Positions 7,198 through 42,963 of a stretch of DNA of 64,000 bases are shown piece by piece. Source of the DNA: Bacilli bacterium. Its GTDB lineage: Bacteria > Bacillota_I > Bacilli_A > RFN20 > CAG-826. Location of the stretch: assembly GCA_034185265.1 (NCBI GenBank), contig JAXFZD010000009.1, positions 3,558 through 67,557 of the forward strand, read 5' to 3'. Position 1 is the first letter of the stretch. Every line of letters starts with the position of its first letter. The notes under the pieces were generated by a model. It saw only the letters and a program-made list of their open reading frames with translations, was not told where the DNA came from and did not search any database. The position numbers and the translations under genes are program-made.

Positions 7198-7198
7198 A

Positions 7199-27351: not shown

Positions 27352-30300
27352 TTAATTAACCGCCACAGGTATGAAGTTAAGGTAATAAGCGAAAACTCCA
27401 TAGTTATACCAATCTTCATAGTCTAAACAACCAACATTAGTAACATCACCAATACCGGCATAATTTCCTAATGGAGTTCCTACTGCGTTATAAGTAATTG
27501 CACATAAGCCATTTACTGTATCAAAATCGGCAAATGAATAAGCTTTTCCTTTAAAAGCATATGTATAATGACGGTCTGTATCAATACTCCATCCTGCAGG
27601 GAATTTCATATCATCAATTGTATCATCGTCATCTGTAAACCCGCCCATAGAGATAATAACTCCAAGCGTAAATTCCATCTTATCTTGAGGAATTAAGCCA
27701 ATTTGACATAGATATTCGCCAAAATTATAGGCTGTTCCCTTTAAGTTATTGTAAAGTTTAACTTTTAAAGCCATAAGTCTAACTGAGGCTTCGTCAATAC
27801 TTACAAGTTCTGCAGGTTCATCATGATTATATCGATCGTAAGTTTCTCCTCTATTAATAAAGGCTTTTTCTTTCCAACCATGATCATAATCTCCAGTAAC
27901 ACGTACAGCGATTCCATAAGCTTGAATGTCATAAGTTAAATATCCACCAGTAGAATAGCAATAAATTGTCTTATCATCGATATTGTTATGATAGAAACGA
28001 GTATCTGTGAATTCTTTTGCTACTGTTTTATCTAATTCTGTGTAACGAGAAGAGACAATTTCTCCTGCATTAATAAATTGAACTAAATTAAGAATTGATC
28101 TTGCACAGTAATAAGTAGATTCAATTTTGGAAACAATTAAATTGAATTGAGGTTCTAATTCAAAACCAAAATTGTAGACAGTTTCAAGCATGATGCGGTA
28201 GCAATCTAACGGAGTAATTCCTGCGTTAATAGTTGTTCCAAATTCAGTAGAAGTAAATGCTTGAACAAAATTAGTGAAAGTTGCGCTAAAGCCATCTAAT
28301 TTTTCTGCATCAGAGAAATGAGTTTGCATAGCTTGGAAACGTAGAGTCTTGATGATATCTCTAATTGTCGCTTCATCTAGATTTCCATAAGAGAATAAAT
28401 CCACAATTACATCTTCTTCAATTTCTGGATAAACGTGTCCATTATTACCGAATAATCCAATTAAAGAATGATTAAGTTGAGGAATAACGATTGTTACAGT
28501 TTTACTTTTATCAATAGGTTTTCCGTCAATTGATAAAGCAGGATTTCTACTTGGGAAAACTAAATTTCCAGCTCTATCATAATTTAATGTAACTGTAGGT
28601 TCTTTTCCTGCATAAGGATCATAAGAATCAACTACTATGTTATAGAAATAACGGAAATAATCGTTTGAATAAGAAACAATTGCATCTTTTAGCGGCATAT
28701 AGAAATCAGTTGTAAAAGCTTTCCAAGCTGTATGAGCTGCTAAATAATTAGAGAGTAAAGATTGTTGACCAAGTTGCTCAAGTTCAGCTTGGATAACATC
28801 TAATTGATCAATAATTGAGTCTATTTTTTGTTCAATTTCTAATAATTTATCGTAAATAGATGCTAAAGCGGAGAGGATTTTTGTAGTTGGATCAGCGATT
28901 GCTTCAATTCCTAGAAGCTTACTTGCTCCAGCTCTAAGAGTTGCAAAATCTCCAGAATATAAGCCATATCCAATCATTCCGATATTTGTTGCAGCGTTAA
29001 CTAGAGTTTCTGCATCATTAACATCATCGTTCATTTGTGGATCAAAAGTGTTTACTTCGATTTCACTTTTTACACTTCTATAACTTTGATTGGCGCTTTG
29101 AGTAACTGTTCCAGTTCCTCCTCCTGGGTCGACAGATTTGTCCAATTCATATTCTACGACTTGCTTAATTGGAATAATGTCTTGATCTTTATACCAATTT
29201 TTAACAAAACAAGCTTTACTTCCATCTTCAAGTTCAAATTCTGTTAAATCAACATAAGCAATTCCTAATTCACTTAAGTCTTCTGCAGCAATTATAAATT
29301 CTCCTGTAATAGTTGTTACATCAGGAACACTTAAAGAGGTAAGCGAAACTGTGTAATCAGGCATCGTTACGATGAAATCAACATTTTTTGGATAAACTAA
29401 AAATTTATCTAAATTATCTTTAAATGTATTTGTAACTAAGCAATCATGAAGTTTGACGTTGAAAACACCTTTATAATTTACTTCGCTATATTTAAGAAGC
29501 TTTACAGAGATTTCAAGGGCTGGTTCGAATAAATTTATAGAAAAATCTTGTGCTTCGTTACTTGTTAAAGCTTCCTTTTCTACATGAATTTTTACGTTAT
29601 CTAAAAGATCTTTTGCGAGGGCTTCACTTAATGCTTCAGGAAGATGTAAGCGGAATCTAAAAGCAGTAAAATCATCGCTAATTGAGATCATTTCTAAAGA
29701 ATATTTATCGGAAGGAGAAACACTAAAATACTTAATTTCTCCTGCATTAACTTTTTTCATGTAGTCTTCTTTAGATAAATTATCTTCATTCACAAGCTTG
29801 ATATTTTTCATATTAATTGTGAAATCAAGCAATTTACGTTCTTCATCTAGACGGAAAGAAGAAGTATCGATTTCAGCTCTTCTATCTGCTACAGGAATAG
29901 TTGAAGTAACATAGATTCCTTCTTCGTTAGTTTCTCTTGCTAAAGCGATATATCCATTTCCTTCATATAGTTTGCCTTCAGTTTTAATAGAAAGTCTTCC
30001 AGAATTTGAAGTTACACTCTTAACTTTCAAATGAGAAAAATCTCCGTGTAAATAGACCATATTCGGGGAAATATCATCTTTTAAAGAAATTACGTCAGTG
30101 GAGAAATCAAATTCAACGTCTTTTTGTCCATTAAAGAATAATTCTTCGGTTTGTAAAGGAGAATATGCAGGAAGATAATCCTTGTTATATCCTTCAAAAT
30201 AATCTAAAGGTATAAATGAGGCGTAGAGAGATAAATTGCTATTTACTGGGAGAGAAAAATCATAGGCTGTAGTTAAATCTACATCTGTACACCACTCTTT

Positions 30301-30537
30301 AAAAGAATATTCTTCTTTTGTTGGGTCTGCAGGTTTATTAACTGCACGTCCTTCTTCTACTTCTATAGAATTTAATAGAGTTGCACCATCATAAAAGCTT
30401 ACTGTATAAGTTGCTATAGAGCTACTAGAAGCAGCACTAGAAGAACTTTCACTAATTACTTGGCCTCCCCTAGGAGAACTACAAGAAACTAAAGTAAGAG
30501 CAGCTAGAGTAGCAATAATTGAACGTTTTATCTTCAT
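27352..30537 (-). CDS. Large surface lipoprotein with an N-terminal Listeria-Bacteroides-type repeat; rest unknown
   Basis: MKIKRSIIATLAALTLVSCSS (lipobox), YTVSFYDGATLLNSIEVEEGRAVNKPADPTKEEYSFKEWCTD. ATG at 30537 with GGAGG 6 nt upstream; the GTG at 30552 is less likely. Confidence 0.75.
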   Translation of the reverse strand: MKIKRSIIATLAALTLVSCSSPRGGQVISESSSSAASSSSIATYTVSFYDGATLLNSIEVEEGRAVNKPADPTKEEYSFKEWCTDVDLTTAYDFSLPVNSNLSLYASFIPLDYFEGYNKDYLPAYSPLQTEELFFNGQKDVEFDFSTDVISLKDDISPNMVYLHGDFSHLKVKSVTSNSGRLSIKTEGKLYEGNGYIALARETNEEGIYVTSTIPVADRRAEIDTSSFRLDEERKLLDFTINMKNIKLVNEDNLSKEDYMKKVNAGEIKYFSVSPSDKYSLEMISISDDFTAFRFRLHLPEALSEALAKDLLDNVKIHVEKEALTSNEAQDFSINLFEPALEISVKLLKYSEVNYKGVFNVKLHDCLVTNTFKDNLDKFLVYPKNVDFIVTMPDYTVSLTSLSVPDVTTITGEFIIAAEDLSELGIAYVDLTEFELEDGSKACFVKNWYKDQDIIPIKQVVEYELDKSVDPGGGTGTVTQSANQSYRSVKSEIEVNTFDPQMNDDVNDAETLVNAATNIGMIGYGLYSGDFATLRAGASKLLGIEAIADPTTKILSALASIYDKLLEIEQKIDSIIDQLDVIQAELEQLGQQSLLSNYLAAHTAWKAFTTDFYMPLKDAIVSYSNDYFRYFYNIVVDSYDPYAGKEPTVTLNYDRAGNLVFPSRNPALSIDGKPIDKSKTVTIVIPQLNHSLIGLFGNNGHVYPEIEEDVIVDLFSYGNLDEATIRDIIKTLRFQAMQTHFSDAEKLDGFSATFTNFVQAFTSTEFGTTINAGITPLDCYRIMLETVYNFGFELEPQFNLIVSKIESTYYCARSILNLVQFINAGEIVSSRYTELDKTVAKEFTDTRFYHNNIDDKTIYCYSTGGYLTYDIQAYGIAVRVTGDYDHGWKEKAFINRGETYDRYNHDEPAELVSIDEASVRLMALKVKLYNNLKGTAYNFGEYLCQIGLIPQDKMEFTLGVIISMGGFTDDDDTIDDMKFPAGWSIDTDRHYTYAFKGKAYSFADFDTVNGLCAITYNAVGTPLGNYAGIGDVTNVGCLDYEDWYNYGVFAYYLNFIPVAVN

Positions 30538-30599: not shown

Positions 30600-30636
30600 A
30601 TTATACACGCGTGCGTGTCACAAAAGTGTCACAAAT
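30600..30636 (-). promoter_or_regulatory. Direct-repeat operator plus -10 box upstream of the surface-protein operon
   Basis: Plus strand: GTGTCACA (30615-30622) and GTGTCACA (30626-30633), 11-bp period. Gene sense: TGTGACAC-ttt-TGTGACAC, 9 nt, TATAAT (30605-30600). Confidence 0.7.
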
Positions 30637-30655
30637 TACTGTTAAAATTTAAAAT

Positions 30656-32173
30656 TTATTCTTCAACAAGTTCGCTTTCGTTATCTCCAGTATCTTTTTT
30701 AATTGTATAGAGGAAATAAATTAGGATTAATAGACCAATACATGAGAGTCCAATAATCTCAATAATTAATCCATCTAAAGCAAATTTAGAGTTCGGGAAC
30801 ACGTTATCAATTAGACCAACTATATCAACTCCTAAAATTAGTAGCGGCGCAACATATTTAATCATAAAAGCAAAAATAGTCGTGATTTTCCCTAGTCCTA
30901 AACCATCTTCTTCAAGTTTTTTAGCTAAAAACTTAAAGCTAAATAGCTCTTCTTTATTCGATGGCTTATACATAAACAAGCCTACAGATAAAGCAATAAA
31001 TAGCGCGGAAATAGGAATAAAAACTGAAGTAACTATTTGATCTAAAATCTCTAATAAACTTCGATTTCCTATGACCATAGTTGAACTATTATTTAGCGAA
31101 TAGCCTAGCGACATTCCTATAGGAATCGATATTAAAAAGATAAATGTAGCAACAATTAAACAAACTTTCTTTCTTTGTAATTTGTAGCGTTGAATTATGT
31201 ATTGAGCGACAACTTCTATTAAAGAAATTAACGAGGTAATCGCCGCAATCGCTACCATTCCAAAGAACAAGAAGGAAACAATTTTTCCTCCAATTCCTAA
31301 AGTATCAAATATCATTGGCATAGATTGGAAAAGCAAAGCAATTCCATTAACCTGCAAAGTTTGTCCAGTTTCAGCTTGATAGTGATATATAGCTGGGAAA
31401 ATAGCAAGTCCAGCAAGGAGAGCAACTAAAGTATCAAAAAAAGCGACCCACATAACGCATTTTCCGATCTTTACTTCTTTTCCTGAATAAGATCCATAAG
31501 CAAGTAAAGCTCCGACTCCAATAGAAATAGAGAAGAAAGCTTGACTCATCGCACTTAATATTCCTTTAGCTCCTAGGGCAGAAAAATCAGGATTTAGATA
31601 ATAATTTAGTCCTTCCCCAACTCCGCTCCCTAAGCACAAGCAGTAAATAACTATTCCAACTAAAATTACAATTAATGTCGGCATCAAAATCTTACTAGCT
31701 TTCTCAATTCCTTTTTTAACTCCAGCAGAAATAATAACCATGACTAGAGCTAAAAATATCCCAGAATAAAGAATTACTTCTCCAACATTTCCTGAAAAAG
31801 ACAGTAAATTCGTTGGAGTATCTGAGAAAGAATTTAGCGTGTATTTAACCGTATATCCGCCAATTACAACGTAATAAAAAGCTATTAAAAGAGCGGCAAC
31901 TATCGTAACTAATCCAACCCAACCAAGTTTTTTATTTATTTTTTTATAAGAAGTTACGTTATTTGCTTGAGCTCGTTTTCCAATAAAAATTTCTGCTACA
32001 GCTAAAGCTAAACCTAAAACAATTACGCTTAAGATGTAGACAATTACAAAGGCTGCCCCACCATTTTGACTGGTTTTATATGGAAAACTCCAAAGATTCC
32101 CTAGTCCAACAGAACCTCCAGCCGTAGCTAAAATAAACCCTATTCCACTACTAAACCCGTTTTTCTTCTTCAT
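30656..32173 (-). CDS. Sodium-dependent transporter, NSS/SNF family
   Basis: GFILATAGGSVGLGNLWSFPYKTSQNGGAAFV hallmark; about 12 TM segments. Confidence 0.85.
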   Translation of the reverse strand: MKKKNGFSSGIGFILATAGGSVGLGNLWSFPYKTSQNGGAAFVIVYILSVIVLGLALAVAEIFIGKRAQANNVTSYKKINKKLGWVGLVTIVAALLIAFYYVVIGGYTVKYTLNSFSDTPTNLLSFSGNVGEVILYSGIFLALVMVIISAGVKKGIEKASKILMPTLIVILVGIVIYCLCLGSGVGEGLNYYLNPDFSALGAKGILSAMSQAFFSISIGVGALLAYGSYSGKEVKIGKCVMWVAFFDTLVALLAGLAIFPAIYHYQAETGQTLQVNGIALLFQSMPMIFDTLGIGGKIVSFLFFGMVAIAAITSLISLIEVVAQYIIQRYKLQRKKVCLIVATFIFLISIPIGMSLGYSLNNSSTMVIGNRSLLEILDQIVTSVFIPISALFIALSVGLFMYKPSNKEELFSFKFLAKKLEEDGLGLGKITTIFAFMIKYVAPLLILGVDIVGLIDNVFPNSKFALDGLIIEIIGLSCIGLLILIYFLYTIKKDTGDNESELVEE

Positions 32174-32202
32174 AAAATTAAATTTACTTTTTTAAAATTA
32201 TA

Positions 32203-32218
32203 TTCTTCTTAAGAAGAA
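32203..32218. promoter_or_regulatory. Perfect 16-bp palindrome upstream of the NSS transporter
   Basis: TTCTTCTTAAGAAGAA, 30-45 nt upstream of the ATG at 32173. Confidence 0.35.
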
Positions 32219-32297
32219 ATTACTAAAAAAACTAAAAACTATTAACTAAAAATAAAAAGCTCCGCCAAATTTAACTTTAGTAGAGCTAATTTTTTAT

Positions 32298-34154
32298 TTA
32301 TTCAAATCTTTTTTTCAAGACAAGAATATTCTTATCGTTAATTCGATCATAAGCATATTCACTCATGATTTTCTTAACAATTACTAATCCTAATCCGCCT
32401 TCTTCAAAAGCTTTTCCTTCATCAAAAGTAGGATTATTTACAGCTAGTTGGTTGAATTCCTTTGCGTGATCAATGATTGAAATAACAAATTCGTTTTTGC
32501 CTTCATTGAATAGAAGTCTAACAAAAATATCTCCGCCTTTGTTTTGATATCCATGTCTAACTATGTTAGAAAGAAGTTCGTCTCCAACAATTAAAAGTTG
32601 GGTTATAAATTCTTCTGGGAAATTATGAAGATGACCAAAATCATCTATAAAAGATAGCATTTCTTCGATATTTTCTTGTTTTGCGTTAAACTTTCTTTCT
32701 TTATAAGTGTAACTTGTCCCTTGATATTTCATTGTTACAAAGGTTATATCATCGCTTTGAGGAGCATCTTTAACAAATTCACTTATATGATCTTTTATGG
32801 AATGATGGAGCTCAACTGTACAGGTGTAATCTTGCTTATTAAAAACTTTAAGAAATCGCTCCTCACCAAAGAAATCTCCACTAGAATTCCTAGCTTCAGT
32901 AATTCCATCTGTATATAAAGTTAGAGATTCTCCAGGTTTTAAGATAACTTCTTCATCTTTTAAGAAAGAATCTTTAAAGCATCCAAGTAAAAATCCTGAT
33001 CCACATTCAAGAAATCTATAATTTTGATTAGACCCAACTACTGGAGGATTATGTCCAGCGTTGCAATAAGCTACTTTTCCATTTCTTTTATCTAAAATCG
33101 CTAGGAAACAAGTAACGAACATGCTCGCTTTATTTCCTTTAAAAATAGAAGAATTAACTTCTCTTAAGATTTGAGAAGGAGATTTATTTGGTGCAGCAAA
33201 GTCTCTAAAAGAAGTTATAGTTTTCATCATAAACATTGCTGCAGGAACTCCTTTTCCTGAAACATCTCCAATTAAAACCGCGACATGATCTTCATCAATA
33301 TCTAAATAATCATAAAGATCTCCACCAACTTCTTTAGCAGCTTTAAGTTCCCCTACAATCTCAACTTCTTCACTATCAGCAAATTCTTCTGGAAGCGTAT
33401 TAAGTTGAATTTCTTTTGCAACGCTTAGCTCAGTTTTAGATTTTTCTTGTTCGTCATGGATTTTTATTTCGCTATCAAGAAGTTTATAAGTTCTTTTATT
33501 AAGTAAATTAGAGACCATGAAGAATAGCGTTATGATCATTGCTCTAGGGAAGAAATAATAAATTAAGACTTTTATATAGCGGTTATTTCCTTGAGCTTTT
33601 AGTGTGGCTATTAAATCTAATCTTTCCTGAAAAGTTTCGACTGTTCCTATAGTTCCATCAGGTTTAATTACGCCTCCCCCGAATAAATTCTCATCGAATT
33701 CTCCAAAAAACATCCCTAAATATAGACAAATAAGCATCGCTACAATAGAGATTAAATAAACTACTCTTCCAAATGTTGGATTATAGTAATGAGTCGCGAT
33801 TAATACAGCAAAAGGCCAGAATAACAGACTATGTTTAGGCAGCGCAATATTTAGTGCTATGATGACAATTAGTAAAGAAAGCAAAATAAAATATTTATAT
33901 CCAGGTCTTCTAATTAAACTAGTTTTAACTAAAAAAACAGGAATAAGCATTAATATTGAAATAAGAGGGAACATTATATTCACAGCGAGGAAGAAGTGAT
34001 CTGGGATAGTAAAAACCTTTGTGAGATATAAAACCCACATGATTAAAGCTAAAATGCCAGCTGCCATATTTACATATGACATGCATTTATTAGCGTCAGC
34101 TTCGTTTTCGTAATAAGCTCGCTGATATTCATTTTCTTGATTTTTTGTTGCCAT
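32298..34154 (-). CDS. Membrane-bound SpoIIE/PP2C phosphatase fused to an RsbW/SpoIIAB-like HATPase (anti-sigma-type Ser kinase) domain
   Basis: 618 aa. About 6 N-terminal TM helices. PP2C motifs GDLYDY, VLIGDVSGKGVPAAMFM, LYTDGITEA, QSDDITFV. C-terminal LLIVGDELLSNIVRHG and GGLGLVIVKKI. Confidence 0.75.
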   Translation of the reverse strand: MATKNQENEYQRAYYENEADANKCMSYVNMAAGILALIMWVLYLTKVFTIPDHFFLAVNIMFPLISILMLIPVFLVKTSLIRRPGYKYFILLSLLIVIIALNIALPKHSLLFWPFAVLIATHYYNPTFGRVVYLISIVAMLICLYLGMFFGEFDENLFGGGVIKPDGTIGTVETFQERLDLIATLKAQGNNRYIKVLIYYFFPRAMIITLFFMVSNLLNKRTYKLLDSEIKIHDEQEKSKTELSVAKEIQLNTLPEEFADSEEVEIVGELKAAKEVGGDLYDYLDIDEDHVAVLIGDVSGKGVPAAMFMMKTITSFRDFAAPNKSPSQILREVNSSIFKGNKASMFVTCFLAILDKRNGKVAYCNAGHNPPVVGSNQNYRFLECGSGFLLGCFKDSFLKDEEVILKPGESLTLYTDGITEARNSSGDFFGEERFLKVFNKQDYTCTVELHHSIKDHISEFVKDAPQSDDITFVTMKYQGTSYTYKERKFNAKQENIEEMLSFIDDFGHLHNFPEEFITQLLIVGDELLSNIVRHGYQNKGGDIFVRLLFNEGKNEFVISIIDHAKEFNQLAVNNPTFDEGKAFEEGGLGLVIVKKIMSEYAYDRINDKNILVLKKRFE

Positions 34155-34159
34155 TTTAA

Positions 34160-34453
34160 TTATAAAGTTTCAATTTTGATCATGTTTTGGAATCCGACCA
34201 TCTTGAAAATCTCATAGACTGGTTTAGGAGTATTAACTAAACTTGTGTCGTCGTATCTTTGTTTAATTCTTACAATAATTCTTAATCCAGCAGAAGAAAT
34301 GTAGCGAAGATCTTTTAGATCTAAAACTACTTTGCTTGGATTATTTGCAGCTAAAATAGCATCAATTTCTTCTTCCACTGCTTTAGAAGAAGATGAATTT
34401 AGTTCCCCTTCTAAAAATATAGTTAGAACATTATTTTCAAAAACATGTTTCAT
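34160..34453 (-). CDS. STAS-domain anti-sigma-factor antagonist (SpoIIAA/RsbV-like)
   Basis: 97 aa. VVLDLKDLRYISSAGLRIIV contains the conserved phosphorylatable Ser context. Confidence 0.8.
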   Translation of the reverse strand: MKHVFENNVLTIFLEGELNSSSSKAVEEEIDAILAANNPSKVVLDLKDLRYISSAGLRIIVRIKQRYDDTSLVNTPKPVYEIFKMVGFQNMIKIETL

Positions 34454-34465
34454 TTTTTTCTCCTT

Positions 34466-36646
34466 TTAAGCGTTATTATCTAATCTTTGTCTTTCGACTA
34501 ATTCAGCAAATTTGCCTTTTTTAGCAATTAAAGTCTCGTAATTGCCTTCTTCAATAATTTTACCACCTTCGAGCATAATAATTCTATCTGCTTTCATAAT
34601 TGTAGATAATCTATGGGCAATGACAATTCTTGTGCAGTTAAGTTTATCTATAGATTCGGTAATGCTCTTTTGAGTTTTGTTATCTAGAGCGCTAGTAGCT
34701 TCATCAAAAATAAGGATTTTAGGCTTATGAACAATTGCTCTAGCGATCATAATTCTCTGCTTTTGTCCTCCAGAAATGCCACCTTGTCCTTCACTAATTA
34801 CAGTTTTCATTCCCATCGGCATTTCTCTAATATCCTTAGCAATATCTGCGATTTCTGCAGCTTTCCAAGCGTCTTCTTCAGTTAAAGAAGGAGAAGAAAT
34901 AATTATGTTAGAGAAAATATCCGCGTGGAAAAGAGTTCCATTTTGCATGACTGTTCCTATATTTCTTCTTAAAGAAGTCAAGTCAACTTTATCTATATCG
35001 ATATCATCAAAATAAACTTTTCCTTCCAAAGGTTTTTCAAAACCTAATAGGATTCTAACTAAAGTAGATTTTCCACAGCCAGTTTGACCAACTATCGCAA
35101 TATATTCTCCTTGTTTAATATTTAAAGATAGGTTATCTAAAATTAGAGGTCCACTTTCTAAATATTTAAAGGTTACGTTATCTAATTTAATGTTTCCTTT
35201 AACTCCCTCTAGATGAATTTTTCCTTGGCTAGTCTCCGCCTGAGTTTCTAAAATTGGTCTAGCCATGTTATAAACTGGAGAAATCATCGTAAAGATTCCT
35301 ACCATAGAGACTAAGGAAGTAAAAGCTCCAGTTAAAACGCCATAGCTACTGGTAAAAGCCATGTAATTAGAAGCAGTTACGTTATTTTTTGCTGCTAAAT
35401 AATATATTGCTATATTCCCTAACAAGGTAATAAATAAAGAAATAGTCGTAGATAAACGAAGGATCATTGGTGGCTGATATTGAATTTTAGCCGCTCTAGC
35501 ATAGGCATTTGCCCATTTAGCAAACACTCTTTTTTCTGATCCAGATAATCTAATTTTCTGTATTCCGTTAATCATTTCATAAGTTACGCCAGCTTCTTTA
35601 GAAGATAATCTAAGATTTTTTTCTGTATATTTCTTTTGAATAAAGGAAATTGTTATCGTAAATGAAGAAGAAATAATTAGGATAAGCGCGACTGGAAGAA
35701 TTAAAACTGGAGCGAAAGAAATAAGTTGGAATAAGTAAGCTAAAGACATAACTACCGTGATTAAAGTAGTTAAAACGCTACTAACTATCATATTAGCTAG
35801 GCTGCTTATGCTAGCAAATCTAGCCGCTAATTCTCCAGTATTATATTTTTTAAAGAATGAAGTTGGTAAAGAAAGTACCTTCATCATCGCAGCTTTTTGC
35901 ACTTCTTTTTCAATTCGTAGAGATATTCGATTATTTACGTAACTTTGCATAGCGTTAGCTAAAAGCAGTCCAGTTGCAGTAGAAACTACATAAATCGAAA
36001 CTAAAATGAATAGTTTCATATCTTGACTAGAAACTACATTTCCAGTTAACCATCTAGTTAAATAAGGAAGAATCATTCCAATTCCTGTAGCTAAAGCGGA
36101 AAATAGCGCCAAGAAAAGCAAGTCTAGAGGTCTAATTGATTTGCGTAAATATTTCCAATATTCCTTGATTCCTACTTTTGTATTAGGAAGAGGTCTATAG
36201 AAACTTAGCGCTTCAAGTTCAAATTTATTAACTAAAGCAGCTTCGATATATTCTTTTTTTCCTGTGCTATAGTTAATGTAATAATATTTATCTTTTTTAG
36301 GGAATAGCACTACAGGAACTTCACTTAAAAAAGTAAAAAATAGAAGCGGAGTTCCATCTTCATTATTATAAGATTCATTAAGTTCAACTTTATGATAATA
36401 GATGTCACACTGACTTAAAACATAGTTAAGTTTATCGTTAAAAGAAGTAATTCCTTTAGGAATATCTATATTTTGACAGCGGAAATAAGAAAGAATTTGG
36501 TGAATAACAAAAGTATCTCTAATTTCTTCATCGCTTAGATTCTTTTTGTTATCAACTTTTAATCCAGCAAGCGACAAGAAAGAATCTTCGAAGGTTTTTT
36601 CATCGAGAGATTTTCTTTTCTTTACTTGCTCTTCAAACCAGCCCAT
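34466..36646 (-). CDS. ABC transporter permease/ATPase (NHLM/NHPM bacteriocin-system type, no peptidase domain)
   Basis: 726 aa. About 160-aa N-terminal domain, 6 TM, GQTGCGKST Walker A, ISGGQKQR signature, ILIFDEATSALD. Confidence 0.8.
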   Translation of the reverse strand: MGWFEEQVKKRKSLDEKTFEDSFLSLAGLKVDNKKNLSDEEIRDTFVIHQILSYFRCQNIDIPKGITSFNDKLNYVLSQCDIYYHKVELNESYNNEDGTPLLFFTFLSEVPVVLFPKKDKYYYINYSTGKKEYIEAALVNKFELEALSFYRPLPNTKVGIKEYWKYLRKSIRPLDLLFLALFSALATGIGMILPYLTRWLTGNVVSSQDMKLFILVSIYVVSTATGLLLANAMQSYVNNRISLRIEKEVQKAAMMKVLSLPTSFFKKYNTGELAARFASISSLANMIVSSVLTTLITVVMSLAYLFQLISFAPVLILPVALILIISSSFTITISFIQKKYTEKNLRLSSKEAGVTYEMINGIQKIRLSGSEKRVFAKWANAYARAAKIQYQPPMILRLSTTISLFITLLGNIAIYYLAAKNNVTASNYMAFTSSYGVLTGAFTSLVSMVGIFTMISPVYNMARPILETQAETSQGKIHLEGVKGNIKLDNVTFKYLESGPLILDNLSLNIKQGEYIAIVGQTGCGKSTLVRILLGFEKPLEGKVYFDDIDIDKVDLTSLRRNIGTVMQNGTLFHADIFSNIIISSPSLTEEDAWKAAEIADIAKDIREMPMGMKTVISEGQGGISGGQKQRIMIARAIVHKPKILIFDEATSALDNKTQKSITESIDKLNCTRIVIAHRLSTIMKADRIIMLEGGKIIEEGNYETLIAKKGKFAELVERQRLDNNA

Positions 36647-36657
36647 CTATCCCTTTC

Positions 36658-38841
36658 CTATTCATTAGTAACTAACTCGTAATAATAGCCTTTTAAGCTC
36701 ATTAACTGCTCATGGTTTCCTTGTTCAACTATATGTCCTTTATTTAAAACTACGATTAAATCTGCATCTCTAATCGTAGAAAGTCTATGCGCTATGACAA
36801 TAGTTGTAATTCCTCTATGCTTAATTGCTTCAACTACATCAAATTCAGTTTTTGCATCTAGCGCACTAGTTGCTTCATCTAAAATTATTATGCTAGGATC
36901 GCTAGCTAAAGATCTAGCAATCTCTAATCTTTGCTTTTCTCCGCCAGAAAAATTCTTTCCTCCTTCTAGAACTGGAGCATTATATCCGCCATCTCTAGAT
37001 TCAATCATTTTATGAATTTGCGCATCGTTACAGGCTAAAATAACTTCGTAATCCTCGATGGTTTCATCCCACATCTTAAGATTATTCATGATTGTATCTT
37101 CGTATAAAGTTATGTCTTGATCGACTACAGCAATAGAAGAAGTAAATATCTCGTGATCAATTTCTTCTATTTTCTTTCCATCAAATATAATCTCGCCTTC
37201 CCAAGGAGAATATAAACCTGAAATTAACTTAGATAATGTTGATTTTCCGCTTCCTGTAGAGCCAACAATCGCTACTTTTTGACCTTGCTTAATCTCTAAA
37301 TTAAAGTTACTTAAAACAGGTTGATCTAATCTAGAATAACCAAAAGTAATGTTTTTTAAAATAAGGTTCCCACTTATTTTAGAAATCTCTCCTCCTTCAA
37401 TCACTCTAGTTACATTTTTATCTAAAGGATATTCTAAAACATCATCAACTCTTTCCATCGAAGTACGCATTTCTTGAAGAGTTTGTCCGCTGCTAATTAA
37501 AGTCATTGCTGGAGACATAAATGATCCTAATAAACCTTGGAAAGCTAAAATAGAACCGATTGTAAATTCGCCTTTTATTGTGTAATAAACTCCTAAAATT
37601 AAAACGCCATAATTAGCAAGTAAAGACACAAAAGCAGGTAAAAGACCTAGGAATTGATTAGTTTTTGCCATTTTTATTCTTTGAGTAAACACATTATCTT
37701 GAGCTTCACTCCAAGAATCAAAATAAGCTTCTTCAGCTCCGTTGGATTTAATTGTTTCAACCATTTCTATTCCTTTAGAAGTCATAGAAGCAAGTCTAGA
37801 TTTATCCCTAGCTTGAACTCTAGAAATGTTGACTCTAACTTTAGAAATATATTGAGAAAGTAAAGCATTTATCACGATAGTTACTACGCCAACTAAAGTT
37901 AAAATCCAGCTCTTGTTGATCATGACAACTAGATAAACAACAATCATTATTGTGTTAAATAGTAACGGAGCCAAGACATTGACTAAAGTTTCAGCAATCG
38001 AAGCATTCTCACTTCTTCTACCTTGCAAATCTCCTACCATTCTTTGAGAGAAGAACTCTATAGGAAGTCGTAAGATCCTCCACATATAAGTCGTGGAGCC
38101 TATTAAATCTAATTTTCCTTTAATCTTATACGAATATAAGGTTTGAACTAAGCTGACAAGAACTTGAAGTAAACCTATTCCAGCAAAAATCAAAATGAAA
38201 GGAAGCAGCCACTCAGGGTTTTTTCCTCCAAGAAGATGGTCGACAAAAACTTGGTTAATTACAGGAGAAATTATGCTAAATAAATAAGCAATGATTGTAG
38301 TTATTGCAAAGAAAGCTATTAAAGCAACCGCACCTTTGAGTCGTTTTCTTGCAAAGGTGAGAATTGATTTTCTTTTACCTCCAGGAACAAATCCTTCATC
38401 AGGAGTAATTTCAAGATAAACTCCAGTAAAAATCTTATCAAAAGTTTCTAAATCCACTTTAACTAGTCCTTTTGCTGGATCATTTAAGATAGCTTTATTA
38501 CCTCTAAAACCATTTAAAACTACGAAATGGCCTCCGCCCCAATGGATAATTGCAGGAAATTTTCCTAATTCCTTTAATTTTGTGATATTTCTTGCATATC
38601 CAGTTGCTTTAAATCCATATTTCCTTGCTGCAGCGCAGATATTTTTTGCATTAGCTCCGTTTCTAGAAACTCCGCAATCAACTCTAACTTGCTCTAAGGC
38701 AACCCATTTTCCATAGTAAGCCATGATCATAGCTAAAGAAGCCGCTCCACATTCAAGAGCTTCTAACTGCATGATTATCGGAGTATTCGCTACTCCTTTT
38801 CCTGTTTTTGGCTTCTTTATCTCGCTCATTTTATTTTCCAA
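36658..38841 (-). CDS. Bacteriocin/RiPP export ABC transporter with N-terminal C39 peptidase domain
   Basis: QLEALECGAASLAMIMAYYGKWV (C39 catalytic Cys region), 6 TM, GSTGSGKST, FSGGEKQR, IIILDEATSALD. Confidence 0.85.
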   Translation of the reverse strand: MENKMSEIKKPKTGKGVANTPIIMQLEALECGAASLAMIMAYYGKWVALEQVRVDCGVSRNGANAKNICAAARKYGFKATGYARNITKLKELGKFPAIIHWGGGHFVVLNGFRGNKAILNDPAKGLVKVDLETFDKIFTGVYLEITPDEGFVPGGKRKSILTFARKRLKGAVALIAFFAITTIIAYLFSIISPVINQVFVDHLLGGKNPEWLLPFILIFAGIGLLQVLVSLVQTLYSYKIKGKLDLIGSTTYMWRILRLPIEFFSQRMVGDLQGRRSENASIAETLVNVLAPLLFNTIMIVVYLVVMINKSWILTLVGVVTIVINALLSQYISKVRVNISRVQARDKSRLASMTSKGIEMVETIKSNGAEEAYFDSWSEAQDNVFTQRIKMAKTNQFLGLLPAFVSLLANYGVLILGVYYTIKGEFTIGSILAFQGLLGSFMSPAMTLISSGQTLQEMRTSMERVDDVLEYPLDKNVTRVIEGGEISKISGNLILKNITFGYSRLDQPVLSNFNLEIKQGQKVAIVGSTGSGKSTLSKLISGLYSPWEGEIIFDGKKIEEIDHEIFTSSIAVVDQDITLYEDTIMNNLKMWDETIEDYEVILACNDAQIHKMIESRDGGYNAPVLEGGKNFSGGEKQRLEIARSLASDPSIIILDEATSALDAKTEFDVVEAIKHRGITTIVIAHRLSTIRDADLIVVLNKGHIVEQGNHEQLMSLKGYYYELVTNE

Positions 38842-39220
38842 TTACAAAATCAAACGGCTTCATTTCCTTTATAACAACAGTGTAAACATATTCTCCATCG
38901 CTTAGTTCCATAGAAGAAACTATTGGAGATCCATCGTCTTTAAAAGAAAGGATTTCCCCTGCTTTATCAACAATATAAACTTTCTGCCCTACTGCTAACT
39001 GACTTCTAGAAGATTTATCCACATTTAACGTAACTTCGTTATTAGAAATTAAAGCAGTTCCAGTTATCTTAATTGCAATTTTATAAACCATAGACCAAAC
39101 AAAAAAAGAGATAAGAACAGCAGTTATCGCTCCTAAAACTATCCAAGTAACTGGAGAAGTATATTGCAGATGCTTATCTAATTCATCTGGACTAGAAATA
39201 GTTTTTGGTCGTTTTTTCAT
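38831..39220 (-). CDS. Short HlyD-like secretion adaptor (single TM + barrel-sandwich fragment)
   Basis: 129 aa. N-terminal TM TWIVLGAITAVLISFFVW. Overlaps the ABC gene by 11 nt. The position matches the adaptor gene of NHLM-type export systems. Confidence 0.5.
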   Translation of the reverse strand: MKKRPKTISSPDELDKHLQYTSPVTWIVLGAITAVLISFFVWSMVYKIAIKITGTALISNNEVTLNVDKSSRSQLAVGQKVYIVDKAGEILSFKDDGSPIVSSMELSDGEYVYTVVIKEMKPFDFVIGK

Positions 39221-39254
39221 AAAATATAGAAATAATTATATCATTGATATAATT
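39221..39254 (-). terminator. AT-only hairpin between the maturase and exporter genes (possible attenuator or processing site)
   Basis: AATTATATC-att-GATATAATT (39234-39254), followed on the minus strand by ATTATTTCTATATTTT. Confidence 0.25.
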
Positions 39255-39281
39255 TGAGAAAAGTTATTATCTTCTCTATTT

Positions 39282-40676
39282 TTATAAATCTAGAGGTTTA
39301 CTTAAGTGTAAAAAGTTTAAAGTAGAGGTAACTTTTTCATACCAGCCATTTTCAAAGAATATACATTTTGTAATATCTTCGTGATAGAAATTAATGTCTT
39401 TAGAATAAAGAAGCCCTAAAGCCGGGCAGCCTCCGTTACAAACTTTATAATATTTACAATTTGCACATTTATCATTCTCTACAATCTGCTTAAATAGTGG
39501 CGCCATCGCTAGATTTAGATATTCACTTTCTGTAACTAACTGCTTTAGCGGAGTCTTAGTTACATTCCCTAAACTTATTTTATGTTCTAAGAAATATCCT
39601 GACATTTGTAAACAAGGAACGACTTCTCCACTAGAAGAAACCGCGATCATTCCTCTATTTCCTTTACACATTGGAATTCTAATATTAAATTCATCTTTAG
39701 AACAAGCAATAGGAACTAGAGAATAAATTTTATGTTTAGGATCAAGTCTAATAAACTGCCAAATATCGACGGTCATTTTCATATTTGAAGAAGCATAGAA
39801 CTTAGAAAATTCCAGCATTCTTTCATAATATTCTTCTATAGGTAGAGTTGAATCAGGAGAATTCTTTTCCCATCTAGGTGCTTCTGTAGTTCTAATAATT
39901 CTCATTTCTAAAACTCCCATCTCATTTAATAAAGAGGCAGTTTTCATCATCACATCTACATTTTTACGGTTACATTGAACTTGAGCTTTTACATCAAATC
40001 CGTTATCTATACATAATTTAATAGCTTTTAAAGTAAGTTCTTCTGCTTTAGGATGCTGTCTAATAATGTTATGATAGCCGACTCCATCAAAAGATATTTT
40101 TATTAAAGGATTGCAGCCTAATCTTTTGAATTCATCTAACATTTTTTGAGTTAAAAGAAGTCCATTTGTATTTAACTCAAAAATCATCATTTCTCTTTCA
40201 TAAATAGCTCTAACTATATCTAAAAAGCGAGGATGAACTAAAGGTTCTCCTCCCGTAAGAGTAAAGGCATGAACTCCGATATCTCTAGCTTGATCTAGGA
40301 TATCTAGAATTTGTTCGTAAGTTAATTCACTATTAAGCGGAGCGTTATCTTTTGCATTGAAACAGTGCAGACAATTTAAGTTGCATTTTCCTGTAATCAT
40401 TAGATTCATTCGAGGAAAATAGTAGTTTTCGTATTCTTTTAATTTTGACCAAGAAGAGGGCTCTTCTCCTTGGTTACATTCTTCAATTACTCCTCTAGAA
40501 AGAAATTTAGAAAGAAGCTTCGAAGGTTCTAAGTCATGATTTCCGTCACATAGACAAAGTAATTCAAAATCTTCTTTAGGAATGCTAAAAGCGCGATCAT
40601 TACCTTTTACATAAATCGCGCGTTCAACGTACTTCCACTTTCGTAGAGCAATATGTTCATTTAATCTATAGTACAT
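39282..40676 (-). CDS. Radical SAM/SPASM-domain peptide maturase with N-terminal RRE-like (PqqD-like) region
   Basis: ITGKCNLNCLHCFN (CxxxCxxC), C-terminal Cys clusters ..PMCKG.. and CANCKYYKVCNGGCPA (SPASM), N-terminal FELLCLCDGNHDL..LSRGVIEE. Confidence 0.85.
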   Translation of the reverse strand: MYYRLNEHIALRKWKYVERAIYVKGNDRAFSIPKEDFELLCLCDGNHDLEPSKLLSKFLSRGVIEECNQGEEPSSWSKLKEYENYYFPRMNLMITGKCNLNCLHCFNAKDNAPLNSELTYEQILDILDQARDIGVHAFTLTGGEPLVHPRFLDIVRAIYEREMMIFELNTNGLLLTQKMLDEFKRLGCNPLIKISFDGVGYHNIIRQHPKAEELTLKAIKLCIDNGFDVKAQVQCNRKNVDVMMKTASLLNEMGVLEMRIIRTTEAPRWEKNSPDSTLPIEEYYERMLEFSKFYASSNMKMTVDIWQFIRLDPKHKIYSLVPIACSKDEFNIRIPMCKGNRGMIAVSSSGEVVPCLQMSGYFLEHKISLGNVTKTPLKQLVTESEYLNLAMAPLFKQIVENDKCANCKYYKVCNGGCPALGLLYSKDINFYHEDITKCIFFENGWYEKVTSTLNFLHLSKPLDL

Positions 40677-40679
40677 TTA

Positions 40680-40871
40680 TTAATTTTCAAGTTTTCTGCG
40701 ATTATTTTTAGTAGATGCACTGCAGCCTCCACCATTTACTGCATCGAGTTGCTCATCAGTTAAAGTTACATCTTCATCTTTTGCAAGTTGGATTAAGTCA
40801 CTTACGTTTTCACATGCTTTTGCTTTTTCAATTTGTTCTGGGGTTAAACCTTTAAATAAATCTTTTTTCAT
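40680..40871 (-). CDS. RiPP precursor peptide with a Nif11-type leader and double-glycine cleavage motif
   Basis: MKKDLFKGLTPEQIEKAKACENVSDLIQLAKDEDVTLTDEQLDAVNGG-GCSASTKNNRRKLEN. ATG at 40871 with AAGGAG RBS. The 20 extra N-terminal codons in the ORF track overlap the operator and promoter. Confidence 0.75.
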   Translation of the reverse strand: MKKDLFKGLTPEQIEKAKACENVSDLIQLAKDEDVTLTDEQLDAVNGGGCSASTKNNRRKLEN

Positions 40872-40896
40872 GATATTAGCTCCTTTACATGATTTT

Positions 40897-40930
40897 ATTT
40901 TATCAAAATGGGTGTCACAGAAGTGCCACA
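40897..40930 (-). promoter_or_regulatory. Direct-repeat operator plus -10 box upstream of the precursor/maturase/exporter operon
   Basis: Plus strand: GTGTCACA (40912-40919) and GTGCCACA (40923-40930), 11-bp period. Gene sense: TGTGGCAC-ttc-TGTGACAC, 9 nt, TAAAAT (40902-40897). Confidence 0.7.
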
Positions 40931-40939
40931 CTTATAATT

Positions 40940-42133
40940 TTATTTATTTTCTTTACTTGCTAATTTATCTAGAGAGGATTTTTGCTGAGCATAAATTTCC
41001 ATAGCAAAATCTAAAACATCATCTTTAAAGAACTCACTTTTCCCTAATATTTCTCTAATTGTAGATTCAAAACCTATTAAATTATCTTTGTTATACCACG
41101 AATAATCCCATTCCGGATCAAGGTTTCCATAAGCAAAATAAATTAAAAGAAGGGTAGATTTACCGCGATTTTGGATAAAATTCTTCGCAGTTCCACTAGT
41201 CCCAAAAGAACCTCCTAGATCATAAATAGGAGCAATTCTAAGTTCTCCACTATTCATATTTTTAATCATAGAAATGTTATCAAAATGAAGATCGTTAATA
41301 AAACATAGAGACCTTAAACACGCTATCTTAATAAAGAAAAGATAAAGATCTTTATAGCCTTGGTCTAATAGGTTACTTAAGAACTTTTTATGGTTATTCC
41401 TATCTAATTTAATATTTAAATATTGCTTATAAAATTCAAGAGGGAGAACGTTAGAAAGAGGAATTAAAACTTCATCTAACCCAATCATAGGAGAACTTAC
41501 TGAAGCATATTTGCCATAAATTACTTCTAAATCATGCCCAACTACTTCTTCTTCCTTTAATAATTTTTTAGCTAATTTAGAAGCTAAAACTTCTCCTAAA
41601 ACTTCATCAGAATTATTTTGTATACCTAATTTATATAATCTAGGACCTTTTTCTAAGTCATATAGCCAGCCTTTAACTCCCCAACCTGCTGTAGCAATAT
41701 CAGGAACTTCTAAGCTAACTTTAGATAAAGCTGCGTAATTTTCTTTTATAACTTCTCTAGCAAAAGAATCATCCCACTTATTAGAAAAGAAATTTATATC
41801 CTTATAAGATAAGTTTTCTCCTTCTTTTTTAAACCAGTAATGATTAGACAGCGATAATCCATGTCCTTTAAAAAGGAGATTAAATCCGCTTTTACAGTGA
41901 GTTGCTTTTAGAATTTCTCTATATCCTTTTCTAGTTACAGGAATGGCCTGCTTAGAAAAAAACCATTTTATTTTGTTATCTAAAGAATCTTCATTATCTA
42001 AAAATCCATAAGGAGCTTTGTCAAAATACTCTTTCTTTTCGATAAACTTGACTTCTTTTTTTCTTAAATCAACAGTAAAAGAAAGAACTTCGTAATCCTT
42101 ATACATTAAAATATAGATTGTTTTTTTGCTCAT
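40940..42133 (-). CDS. HipA-like Ser/Thr kinase-fold protein
   Basis: 397 aa. INDLHFDNISMI (DxHxxN catalytic-loop-like) and RIAPIYDLGGS (APxYD-like). Confidence 0.55.
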   Translation of the reverse strand: MSKKTIYILMYKDYEVLSFTVDLRKKEVKFIEKKEYFDKAPYGFLDNEDSLDNKIKWFFSKQAIPVTRKGYREILKATHCKSGFNLLFKGHGLSLSNHYWFKKEGENLSYKDINFFSNKWDDSFAREVIKENYAALSKVSLEVPDIATAGWGVKGWLYDLEKGPRLYKLGIQNNSDEVLGEVLASKLAKKLLKEEEVVGHDLEVIYGKYASVSSPMIGLDEVLIPLSNVLPLEFYKQYLNIKLDRNNHKKFLSNLLDQGYKDLYLFFIKIACLRSLCFINDLHFDNISMIKNMNSGELRIAPIYDLGGSFGTSGTAKNFIQNRGKSTLLLIYFAYGNLDPEWDYSWYNKDNLIGFESTIREILGKSEFFKDDVLDFAMEIYAQQKSSLDKLASKENK

Positions 42134-42164
42134 TAATTAAAAATAAAAATTCCTTTATAGGCTT

Positions 42165-42198
42165 AATTTAACATTATCGATGCCACAAAAGTGCCACA
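42165..42198 (-). promoter_or_regulatory. Direct-repeat operator plus -10 box upstream of the HipA-like gene
   Basis: Plus strand: ATGCCACA (42180-42187) and GTGCCACA (42191-42198), 11-bp period. Gene sense: TGTGGCAC-ttt-TGTGGCAT, 9 nt, TAAATT (42170-42165). Starts 3 nt after the RR stop codon. Confidence 0.65.
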
Positions 42199-42201: not shown

Positions 42202-42963
42202 TTAATAATCTGCATCAAAAATAGGCCATGAATATTGCATCATGTATTCTCCTCGATACATTCTTATTGCATCAGGATTTCCTTTTTTATATTCATAAGC
42301 ATCGCAATCAACTTTTGATGTATCTATATAACATTCGTTATGCCTTTTAATAAATACATCAGGGAAACCAGCTTTATTTAAAGTATTTTGTATATCGGCG
42401 ATTAAATTTCTTAAATAGGATGGATGATCTTCTTCCCACAAAACAGCATTTAATTCATTTACATTAATTGCTGAACCTTCTCTATCTACCAAATAAGCGA
42501 AAGCCTCTTTTGATTTTTTATAAGAGAATTTTAAAGGCTCTCCATTACAGAAAACTTCAAAATTACCGAAACATTTTATTTGTAATTTATTAGATTGTTT
42601 AAGTTCAATTTTCTTTCCTAATTCATCAATTTCTTCTTTTATCTTAGATTCATTAACGGGTTTAGTAATGTATCCAGAAGCATGAACCTTAAAAGCTTCT
42701 AAAGCATATTCGTTATAAGCTGTTACGAAAATAATCTTAGTTAGTGGATTCAATTTTTTAAGTTTCTTTGCAAGCTGAATTCCATTTAACCCAGGCATTT
42801 CAATGTCTAGAAATGCCACATCAATTTTATTTTCTTTTGCTTCTTCAAACGCTTTAACTGGATTTGAAAAAGAAACTAATTCTGCATCAGGCAGCACTTT
42901 TTTGCAGGAATTAACAAGTCTTAGAAGCTGCAACTCTTCATCATCTACAAGTAAAATAGTCAT
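42202..42963 (-). CDS. Two-component response regulator: receiver domain + OmpR/SARP-type winged-helix DNA-binding domain
   Basis: ILLVDDE..AFLDIEMPGLNG..IIFVTAY (receiver). LQIKCFGNFEVFCNGEPLKFSYKKSKEAFAYLVDREGSAINVNELNAVLWEE (SARP/Trans_reg_C-like). Confidence 0.8.
   Translation of the reverse strand: MTILLVDDEELQLLRLVNSCKKVLPDAELVSFSNPVKAFEEAKENKIDVAFLDIEMPGLNGIQLAKKLKKLNPLTKIIFVTAYNEYALEAFKVHASGYITKPVNESKIKEEIDELGKKIELKQSNKLQIKCFGNFEVFCNGEPLKFSYKKSKEAFAYLVDREGSAINVNELNAVLWEEDHPSYLRNLIADIQNTLNKAGFPDVFIKRHNECYIDTSKVDCDAYEYKKGNPDAIRMYRGEYMMQYSWPIFDADY

Follow-up and report, generated by a model that had tools for sequence, protein, structure and literature searches.

What controls three neighbouring transcription units that share one direct-repeat element, and to which signal would they respond? 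The question is posed by a stretch of 64,000 nucleotides (nt) from a Bacilli bacterium (assembly GCA_034185265.1, contig JAXFZD010000009.1, positions 3,558 to 67,557), the whole of which is referred to here as the window, and in which a LytS-type sensor kinase and a short response regulator adjoin genes for an exported peptide and for very large surface proteins. The genes of the locus all lie on the minus strand and are transcribed from high to low coordinates. On comparative grounds, it is very probable that the adjacent response regulator uses the repeats as its operator. The wider reading favoured here, which is considered probable, is that they belong to activator-dependent sigma-A promoters switched by this neighbouring two-component regulator, with an exported peptide as the most likely input.

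The operator/promoter sites

The three sites, all on the minus strand, share the form TGTGRCAY-N3-TGTGRCAY-N9-TAnnnT, and each stands just 5′ of a minus-strand gene, namely that of a lipoprotein (ATG at 30537), a precursor peptide of 63 amino acids (aa; ATG at 40871) and a 397-aa protein (ATG at 42133).

30600-30633, minus strand: operator/promoter 1, TGTGACAC-ttt-TGTGACAC-gcacgcgtg-TATAAT; would drive the lipoprotein and giant surface protein genes; predicted start ~30593.
40897-40930, minus strand: operator/promoter 2, TGTGGCAC-ttc-TGTGACAC-ccattttga-TAAAAT, the N9 stretch ending in TGA; predicted start ~40890; candidate targets are the precursor, radical SAM enzyme, ABC exporters, STAS protein, SpoIIE/kinase fusion and, probably, the SNF transporter.
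42165-42198, minus strand: operator/promoter 3, TGTGGCAC-ttt-TGTGGCAT-cgataatgt-TAAATT, the N9 stretch ending in TGT; would drive the 397-aa gene; predicted start ~42158.

Direct reading returned these sites at the coordinates, and in the register to the -10 box, that an initial annotation of the window had given them. The half-site of 8 nt, the spacer of 3 nt and the gap of 9 nt to the -10 hexamer are identical in all three, as it had also said. The two 11-bp units (TGTGRCAY plus TTY) would cover approximately -40 to -22, in front of a good -10 box and in place of a -35 box; this last proposal of the annotation was borne out, as neither a promoter scan nor direct reading found a TTGACA-like hexamer 16–18 nt 5′ of the -10 box at any of the three sites. 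A TGn extended -10 element is present at sites 2 and 3 and absent at site 1. A consensus promoter and terminator scan did not flag the three promoters as sigma-70-like, which fits promoters that lack a -35 box and adds little else, and it returned no convincing terminators between the units. An Rfam search of positions 22000-46000 gave no matches.

The window holds only three copies of the element, and its half-site TGTGACA is near-palindromic and of moderate complexity, so that a likeness arising by chance, or by recent duplication of a promoter cassette, has to be considered. The probability of such an origin, without regulatory meaning, is close to negligible. A search with TGTGRCAYNNNTGTGRCAY at two or fewer mismatches returned three matches in 64 kb, exactly the three sites, against a shuffle expectation of 0.11, and 0 of 100 shuffles reached three; relaxation to three mismatches added window matches at chance level only. 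Moreover, the sites resemble one another only in the repeats and the -10 box, whereas the N9 stretches and the flanks are unrelated, which argues against a duplicated cassette. The recurrence of the pattern in other genomes, where promoter features that were not selected for are conserved, stands against chance as well.

This recurrence emerged when public genomes, with each species represented by one, were scanned with the pattern TGTGRCAYTTYTGTGRCAH-N9-TANNNT; the scan returned at least 116 stretches with the full pattern, compared with approximately three estimated by chance under uniform base composition. Nearly all of the matches listed come from rumen or gut Firmicutes, and the carriers among them include Erysipelotrichaceae/'Bacilli' metagenome-assembled genomes (MAGs), Lachnospiraceae, Oscillospiraceae/Ruminococcaceae, Eubacterium, Pseudobutyrivibrio, Oribacterium sp. 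P6A1 and Lachnospiraceae bacterium AC2029. Several genomes carry multiple copies, with at least seven operators in the Erysipelotrichaceae MAG RUG12224. A logo of 123 sites revealed, at positions that the search pattern left unconstrained, an extended -10 element at -15/-14 (T in 97 of 123 sites, G in 87) and, 6–7 nt past the -10 box, a pyrimidine (95 of 123) followed by a purine (106 of 123), the usual start-site dinucleotide. These unselected features mark the sites as real sigma-A promoters without a -35 box, and they lend statistical backing to the prediction that transcription starts 7 nt past the -10 box.

The repeats overlap the region where RNA polymerase contacts a -35 box, and occupancy could therefore block transcription, with the regulator acting as a repressor or roadblock and not as an activator. 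This has a very low probability: the promoters hold no -35 hexamer to block, and a fixed register to a good extended -10 over 123 sites is what characterises activators that take over the role of the -35 box, as at PHO boxes and SARP sites. Two other candidate identities for the element were rejected. A CRP/FNR-type site (TGTGA-N6-TCACA) does not fit, as the repeats are direct, not inverted, and the G variant TGTGGCA breaks the palindrome. An alternative sigma-factor promoter tied to the STAS/SpoIIE genes of the locus was set aside, given the standard extended sigma-A -10 with a tandem repeat 5′ of it.

Individual sites show further features. Because TGTGACAC is near-palindromic, the plus strand at 30615-30648 reads GTGTCACA-aaa-GTGTCACA-N9-TAAAAT, antisense into the 3′ end of the SNF gene; this is probably a coincidence, as half-site position 4 would be C. 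Among the relatives' loci (numbered with an L), some sites carry a third repeat 5′ at the same 11-bp period (L037 4722-4771, L072 1494-1543 and L104), for example TGTGGCATTTC-TGTGGCACTTC-TGTGGCAA. In the syntenic locus L004, whose regulator is 81% identical, both operators occur in the same register, one before a 386-aa homologue of the 397-aa protein and one before two precursors. At L004 10763-10810, an ATG in agreement with the N-terminus (MSKRDIYILMYK) conserved in the 397-aa family lies only ~10 nt past the predicted -10 box, so the transcript would be leaderless or nearly so; the gene caller took a later ATG. Two contigs assigned to taxa outside the Firmicutes, L081 ('Bacteroides sp.' MAG) and L086 ('Treponemataceae' MAG), carry the operator with an Oscillospiraceae-typical regulator homologue, and L086 a kinase too; both are probably mis-binned. 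L025 (Ignavibacteriales) and L069 (Terriglobia) have an operator match without regulator or kinase genes and look like the few chance matches expected.

The adjacent regulator and its probable link to the operator

Operator 3 begins 4 nt past the stop codon of a response regulator gene, the last of a three-gene operon.

44256-44942, minus strand: VTC-domain protein, first gene of the operon that it forms with the histidine kinase and response regulator.
42966-44231, minus strand: sensor histidine kinase of 421 aa, in which ~7 transmembrane segments precede a His_kinase domain (PF06580, LytS/YehU type) and HATPase_c.
42202-42963, minus strand: response regulator, 253 aa, with a receiver, a modelled OmpR/PhoB-type winged helix and a BTAD-like stub of ~30 aa.

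The receiver is recognised by Pfam (Response_reg, E = 3.9e-24), and its residues D7, D8, D53, T81 and K101 are invariant in 32 homologues. It is closest to BtsR/LytR receivers, which fits its pairing with a kinase of the LytS/YehU type, a type usually paired with LytTR regulators. An AlphaFold model of the regulator, built on 32 homologues with a mean pLDDT of 78, predicts strands at 127–143, helices at 149–160, 168–174 and 181–197 and a hairpin wing at 204–213. In this model, residues ~127–213 would form a winged helix with a predicted recognition helix at ~181–197 that carries R185 and N186. Its best Foldseek matches are the full-length OmpR/PhoB regulators DrrB, VanR, PhoP, PrrA, CosR and KdpE (E of 1e-10 to 1e-7 over ~224 columns). 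After the wing only ~30 residues follow (CDAYEYKKGNPDAIRMYRGEYMMQYSW), modelled at low confidence; this tail, CDAYEYKK...YRGEYM.QYSW, looks like the start of a BTAD domain of which the remainder is missing. A 79%-identical homologue (P0059) is named 'two-component SAPR family response regulator' by JGI.

The operator was tied to this regulator from two directions. Starting from the motif, a search within 8 kb found a regulator homologue in 22 of 116 loci, and in 16 of the 18 distinct loci with such a homologue the operator lies 3–225 nt past the regulator stop on the same strand, a placement kept down to 41% identity (Lachnospiraceae, Oscillospiraceae). Starting from the regulator, a metagenome scan for homology gave at least 520 relatives, and 80 metagenome loci were fetched by regulator homology alone as a reciprocal test. 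A kinase homologue directly precedes the regulator in 42 of 61 of these homology-chosen loci. The DNA 3′ of their regulators shows the same geometry with other half-sites (TGTTGCA, TGTAGCA, GGTAC[A/G], GGTGCGG and TTTGCG[G/C]), and for this reason the exact-motif test was replaced by a motif-free detector, which looks between -20 and +300 of the regulator stop for two 8-mers at least 7/8 identical at an 11-bp period, followed by N9 and TAnnnT. The detector was positive in 21 of 71 evaluable loci, against a control rate of 0.0065 per 320 nt elsewhere in the same loci; at an identity of at least 6/8 it was positive in 29 of 71, against 0.029.

Furthermore, the half-site tracks the residue that follows the conserved arginine of the recognition helix, N186 in the window protein. 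Regulators with R-N have TGT[G/T]RCA in nearly all of ~54 half-sites, those with R-V have TGTAGCA (two loci), those with R-K have GGT[A/G]C-type half-sites (several loci) and those with R-T have TTTGCG (two loci). Such co-variation is the pattern that a cognate regulator–operator pair should show. The proposal of the initial annotation that the repeats are the operator of the adjacent regulator thus gains from their position after the regulator gene, their enrichment in homology-chosen loci and the joint change of helix and half-site, which together make it very probable.

Several observations weigh against the regulator as the activator of these promoters. Pfam gave no match to residues 122–253 even at E = 10, neither to Trans_reg_C (PF00486) nor to BTAD (PF03704) nor to LytTR, and NCBIfam likewise failed; the only sequence hints to the output domain are full-length alignments to the VanR-B model (residues 3–206) and to DrrB 1p2f (residues 2–195). 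TM-scores of the whole model against OmpR-family structures are low (~0.4–0.5), which is taken to reflect domain orientation. Exact TGTGRCAY repeats, with up to one mismatch, occur just 3′ of the regulator in only 3 of 73 homology-chosen loci, so that the link hinges on accepting variant half-sites, and ~60–70% of homology-chosen loci have no detectable repeat just 3′ of the regulator. The co-variation counts cannot be treated as independent events, because the division into specificity classes in part mirrors that into clades. Moreover, G-type and T-type half-sites share one recognition-helix sequence, and the specificity determinant is therefore not fully explained. Support for the regulator–operator link is comparative throughout.

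As far as the fold is concerned, the model presents the regulator as a receiver joined to an OmpR/SARP-like winged helix, whose place in the OmpR/PhoB family is a matter of fold only. The presence of a receiver domain and the absence of a full BTAD set it apart from canonical SARPs. The initial annotation had described the output domain as 'exactly' of the SARP/OmpR type; the winged helix stood up in AlphaFold and Foldseek, whereas the word 'exactly' did not, given that Pfam finds neither domain and the BTAD is cut to ~30 residues.

The missed C-terminal domain and the comparative nature of the support leave room for another transcription factor, encoded elsewhere, to bind the repeats, with the adjacency of the regulator a coincidence of operon layout. 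In line with this, 94 of the 116 operator loci lack a regulator homologue within 8 kb; however, remote regulon members are expected of any regulator, so far-off sites are not counter-evidence. Against binding by another factor stand the position of the operator after the regulator in relatives as distant as 41% identity, the ~46-fold enrichment in loci picked by regulator homology alone, and the change of half-site together with the recognition-helix residue of this very regulator. Binding by an unrelated factor is accordingly judged highly unlikely.

Some relatives depart from the common layout. In L001 (10757-11062), and also in L002 and L003, with a regulator identity of 75%, the whole peptide cluster is missing, and the gap after the regulator holds apparent remnants of the 3′ end of the second ABC exporter, followed by STAS/SpoIIE genes; it looks like a deletion that took out both operators. 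The regulator of these loci follows a choline-kinase/APH gene and not a histidine kinase. In L058 (from 1391), L084 (from 3832) and L086 (from 2674), which are of Oscillospiraceae type and 41–42% identical, the gene right after the regulator and operator looks like a receiver domain only, which would suggest a second phospho-acceptor controlled by the regulator.

Predicted target genes and the candidate signal

The genes 3′ of operators 3, 2 and 1 are, in the order of transcription:

40940-42133, minus strand: 397-aa protein with marginal HipA/CtkA-type kinase similarity, first operator target after the regulator.
40680-40871, minus strand: 63-aa precursor with a Nif11-like leader ending in GG; predicted core GCSASTKNNRRKLEN.
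39282-40676, minus strand: radical SAM/SPASM peptide maturase, 464 aa.
38831-39220, minus strand: membrane protein of 129 aa, whose match to the HlyD-type secretion protein of the NHLP system is limited to the N-terminus of the latter.
36658-38841, minus strand: ABC exporter of NHLP type that includes a C39 peptidase domain; scores 836 bits with TIGR03796 (cut-off 853).
34466-36646, minus strand: second ABC exporter subunit of NHLP type; scores 665 bits with TIGR03797 (cut-off 709).
34160-34453, minus strand: STAS-domain protein of anti-sigma-antagonist type, in the same operon as the exporters.
32298-34154, minus strand: membrane fusion of a SpoIIE/PP2C phosphatase and an RsbW-like HATPase_c_2 kinase, partner-switching companion of the STAS protein.
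30656-32173, minus strand: SNF (sodium:neurotransmitter symporter) family transporter, last gene before operator 1.
27352-30537, minus strand: lipoprotein of ~1061 aa with lipobox LVSC and a Listeria-Bacteroides repeat, first gene 3′ of operator 1.
22603-27321, minus strand: surface protein of 1572 aa that combines Chlamydia-PMP repeats and a Cna_B domain with a membrane anchor at its C-terminus.

Intergenic gaps 3′ of operator 2 measure 3–124 nt, and no terminator-like site was found between the end of the SNF gene and operator 1. In the proposed mechanism, the LytS-type polytopic kinase would phosphorylate the regulator, as their domain content and adjacency suggest. The phosphorylated regulator would then use its OmpR/PhoB-type winged helix to bind the repeats, as a head-to-tail dimer, a step with strong comparative support, and, by analogy, would recruit RNA polymerase in the manner of PhoB and the SARPs. 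The units switched on would be, first, the HipA/CtkA-like protein; second, the Nif11-leader peptide with its radical SAM maturase, the C39 ABC exporters and the STAS/SpoIIE partner-switching pair; and third, the lipoprotein with the 1572-aa surface protein.

Two functional labels of the initial annotation fared differently from its account of the operator. The 'HipA-like' label of the 397-aa protein finds marginal matches only: HipA_C is matched at E = 0.014 and 15.5 bits, below the cut-off of 30.5, and the family profile matches CtkA (3akj) at E = 0.026 in an alignment that spans the D-x-H-x-x-N loop. The family is narrow, with 241 members, every one of them named 'hypothetical', and PF07804 is found in 1 of 120 listed homologues. 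The second label, a phospholipase among the surface genes, was not recovered in the giant surface protein, where Pfam detected no such domain.

The peptide gene, by contrast, is in keeping with its earlier description as the precursor of a ribosomally synthesised and post-translationally modified peptide (RiPP), in that it belongs to a Nif11-like-leader family and lies beside a radical SAM/SPASM enzyme and NHLP-type C39 ABC exporters. The family was assigned by scanning 18 paralogues and orthologues from the fetched loci, of which 11 match the Nif11-like leader models TIGR03798/PF07862, with E = 4.6e-6 at best; the copy in the window falls short of E = 0.01, and a homologue search with the 63-aa precursor returned three matches, none of them named. 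The peptide cores all start with Cys right after GG, followed by Ser/Thr-rich residues. Many of the operator-driven peptides are longer (~90–100 aa) and combine a Nif11-like leader, GG and a Cys-Ser/Thr motif with a CxxC...CxxC zinc-ribbon core. These zinc-ribbon mini-proteins occur several per genome, each with its own operator (three sites in L051, three in L061, and L013, L024, L038, L042, L083, L115 and others). It is unusual for a bacteriocin-like peptide to carry a zinc ribbon after its GG leader.

Across the relatives, 115 unique first genes 3′ of operators comprise 36 GG/Nif11-leader peptides, 49 signal-peptide proteins or lipoproteins (36 of which are at least 300 aa long or run off the contig) and 30 others or miscalled open reading frames (ORFs). 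The predicted regulon thus consists mostly of exported products, that is, secreted peptides and large surface proteins.

The input signal is proposed to be, most likely, the exported short radical-SAM-modified peptide, which would make the circuit one of peptide autoinduction, quorum-sensing-like in character. A GG-leader precursor, a C39 ABC exporter and a kinase–regulator pair are adjacent in the window, L004, L034, L072 and L120, and this three-component layout, together with the polytopic kinase, favours the peptide as kinase ligand. That the matured short peptide is indeed the ligand, as the gene arrangement suggests, is given slightly less than an even chance. Only gene arrangement would connect the peptide with the sensor domain of the kinase, which counts against this step. 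So does the absence of an operator before the two-component operon, which the initial annotation had noted for the window and which extends to all but 1 of 34 relatives; the operon would therefore be expressed independently. Many kinase–regulator pairs, moreover, are followed by a surface-protein gene and not by a peptide cluster. By analogy with nisRK, which is likewise not under its own regulator, a lack of autoregulation would nevertheless be compatible with autoinduction.

The same observations could be accommodated if the regulator binds the operators and the kinase responds not to the peptide of the locus but to another cue, for example from the host, the diet, the envelope or a competitor, so that peptides and surface proteins are mere outputs and no loop exists. 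This arrangement has a real claim, though one that falls appreciably short of even. It suits the uninduced two-component operon, and it suits those loci in which a gene for a large surface protein comes immediately after the kinase–regulator pair and no peptide cluster is found within 8 kb (L014, L018, L028, L044, L052 and L099). The regulon also contains many paralogues of the peptides in a genome (three each in L051 and L061, for example), and no single one suggests itself as a dedicated signal. However, the short-core precursors, of 63–68 aa and with a basic tail, stand specifically beside the radical SAM enzyme and the kinase–regulator pair (window, L004, L034 and L106), an arrangement that resembles the induction peptides of three-component bacteriocin systems. 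The kinase, correctly called polytopic by the initial annotation, has ~7 transmembrane segments with very short loops, a topology typical of peptide-sensing kinases such as AgrC and ComD.

Taken furthest, the peptide-induction proposal would give rumen and gut Firmicutes a master switch for peptide quorum sensing, formed by the widespread family of LytS-type 7-transmembrane kinases and short receiver–winged-helix 'mini-SARPs'. The autoinducer would be a short Nif11-leader peptide modified by a radical SAM enzyme, the regulator would read a code of one recognition-helix residue against half-site position 4, and the switch would launch zinc-ribbon mini-proteins and giant adhesins. This generalisation is tentative and more doubtful than not; if true, it would define a new class of RiPP-based cell–cell signalling with a specificity code predictable from sequence. 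If the favoured reading of the locus holds, an operator, a regulon and a likely signal would be assigned to a large regulator family (at least 520 relatives) for which no function was found in the searchable literature, and the regulon could be predicted from sequence in uncultured rumen and gut Firmicutes. Secreted peptides and very large surface proteins, the kinds of product encoded in it, influence both competition and attachment in the rumen. The link between helix residue and half-site offers a small, directly testable specificity code, and the compact module of regulator gene, operator and target could act as a peptide-inducible expression switch for anaerobic Firmicutes.

Some neighbouring genes deserve mention in their own right. 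The partner-switching set, consisting of the STAS protein and the membrane SpoIIE/RsbW-like fusion, is kept at the 3′ end of the peptide-export operon (window 32298-34453; L004 18816-20759; L015), and in relatives it also includes a STAS-APH kinase. L004 carries a second such set 5′ of the kinase (4488-8725), including a MatE-HATPase_c_2 fusion. In three Lachnospiraceae loci (L017, L117 and L119), the first called ORF 3′ of the operator has ~490 aa and lies behind a leader of 260–280 nt; from its motif FEGWGAAGKG, it is read as polyphosphate kinase 2-like. Together with the window's VTC gene, which is polyphosphate-polymerase-like and heads the kinase–regulator operon, these ORFs hint at a link to polyphosphate metabolism. 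Just 3′ of the giant surface-protein gene, at 21286-22389 on the minus strand, lies a 367-aa protein with HTH_3 and Peptidase_M78 domains (ImmA/IrrE-like), a pairing common at the edges of mobile elements or prophages.

Comparison with known systems

The promoter architecture resembles that of PhoB targets. The PHO box consists of two 11-nt direct-repeat units, each with 7–8 conserved and 3–4 less conserved bases (PMC4415409). As there, the repeats of the window stand in for the -35 box at a fixed distance from the -10 box, and the regulator combines a receiver with a winged helix, as judged by Foldseek, for which a head-to-tail dimer is expected. The window regulator differs from PhoB in that Trans_reg_C escapes detection by Pfam, a BTAD-like stub ends the protein and the receiver is BtsR/LytR-like. 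Its partner kinase is of the LytS/YehU type (PF06580), whereas PhoR is of the HisKA type, and the proposed regulon is one of exported peptides and surface proteins, not of phosphate uptake.

SARP sites are heptamer repeats with 4-nt spacers that lie on one helix face and normally overlap the -35 region (PMC3367932). The 11-bp period of heptamer repeats over the -35 region is common to the sites of SARPs (examples of which are ActII-ORF4, DnrI, AfsR and PimR) and to those of the window and the 123 related sites. Three repeats occur in some relatives (L037, L072 and L104), as in the PimR site, and a natural-product cluster is under control in both cases. In contrast, SARPs lack a receiver and possess a full BTAD, whereas the window regulator has a receiver and only ~30 residues past the wing; the hosts here are Firmicutes and not Actinobacteria, and activation here would involve phosphorylation from a membrane kinase. 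The COG3947 'SAPR family' regulators share the domain order of receiver, winged helix-turn-helix and BTAD, but the present subfamily is short (~250 aa) and misses most of the BTAD. A literature search found no operator, regulon or signal described for any COG3947 'SAPR' member, nor a description of this family or its operator. Likewise, the literature searched gave no description of a LytS-type kinase and a short receiver–winged-helix regulator ending in a BTAD stub in combination with an operator that immediately follows the regulator gene and a regulon of Nif11-leader peptides and giant surface proteins.

Among signalling systems, the nisin (NisRK) and subtilin (SpaRK) circuits have a logic similar to that proposed here. 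In both, the mature RiPP signals to a kinase and an OmpR-type regulator, the two-component genes are not induced, and short direct repeats spaced at 11 bp stand before the precursor operon and at least one other operon. The window shares the 11-bp direct-repeat promoters before the precursor and other operons, as well as the uninduced two-component genes. It differs in the kinase class, in the repeat sequence and in its radical SAM/SPASM Nif11-leader RiPP in place of a lanthipeptide; furthermore, large surface proteins and numerous paralogous peptides come within the regulon, and the signal role of the peptide is here a proposal.

A second group of similar logic comprises the three-component class II bacteriocin and competence systems and Agr (PlnABCD, CbnS/K/R, BlpRH, ComCDE and Agr). 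In these, too, a short GG-leader induction peptide lies beside a kinase and regulator and is exported by a C39-peptidase ABC transporter, several GG-leader operons share one direct-repeat element and the kinases are polytopic. Their regulators, however, carry LytTR domains and bind repeats of 9–10 bp that are approximately two helical turns apart and 5′ of a -35 box, whereas the regulator of the window has a predicted winged-helix output with no match to LytTR, and its repeats are spaced at 11 bp over the -35 region. The kinase–regulator operon of the window, moreover, lies 5′ of the peptide and is not autoinduced. The modelled fold places the regulator outside the LytTR quorum-sensing regulators. 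Set beside these systems, the mechanism proposed for the locus is conventional; the family, the regulon and the apparent specificity code are new.

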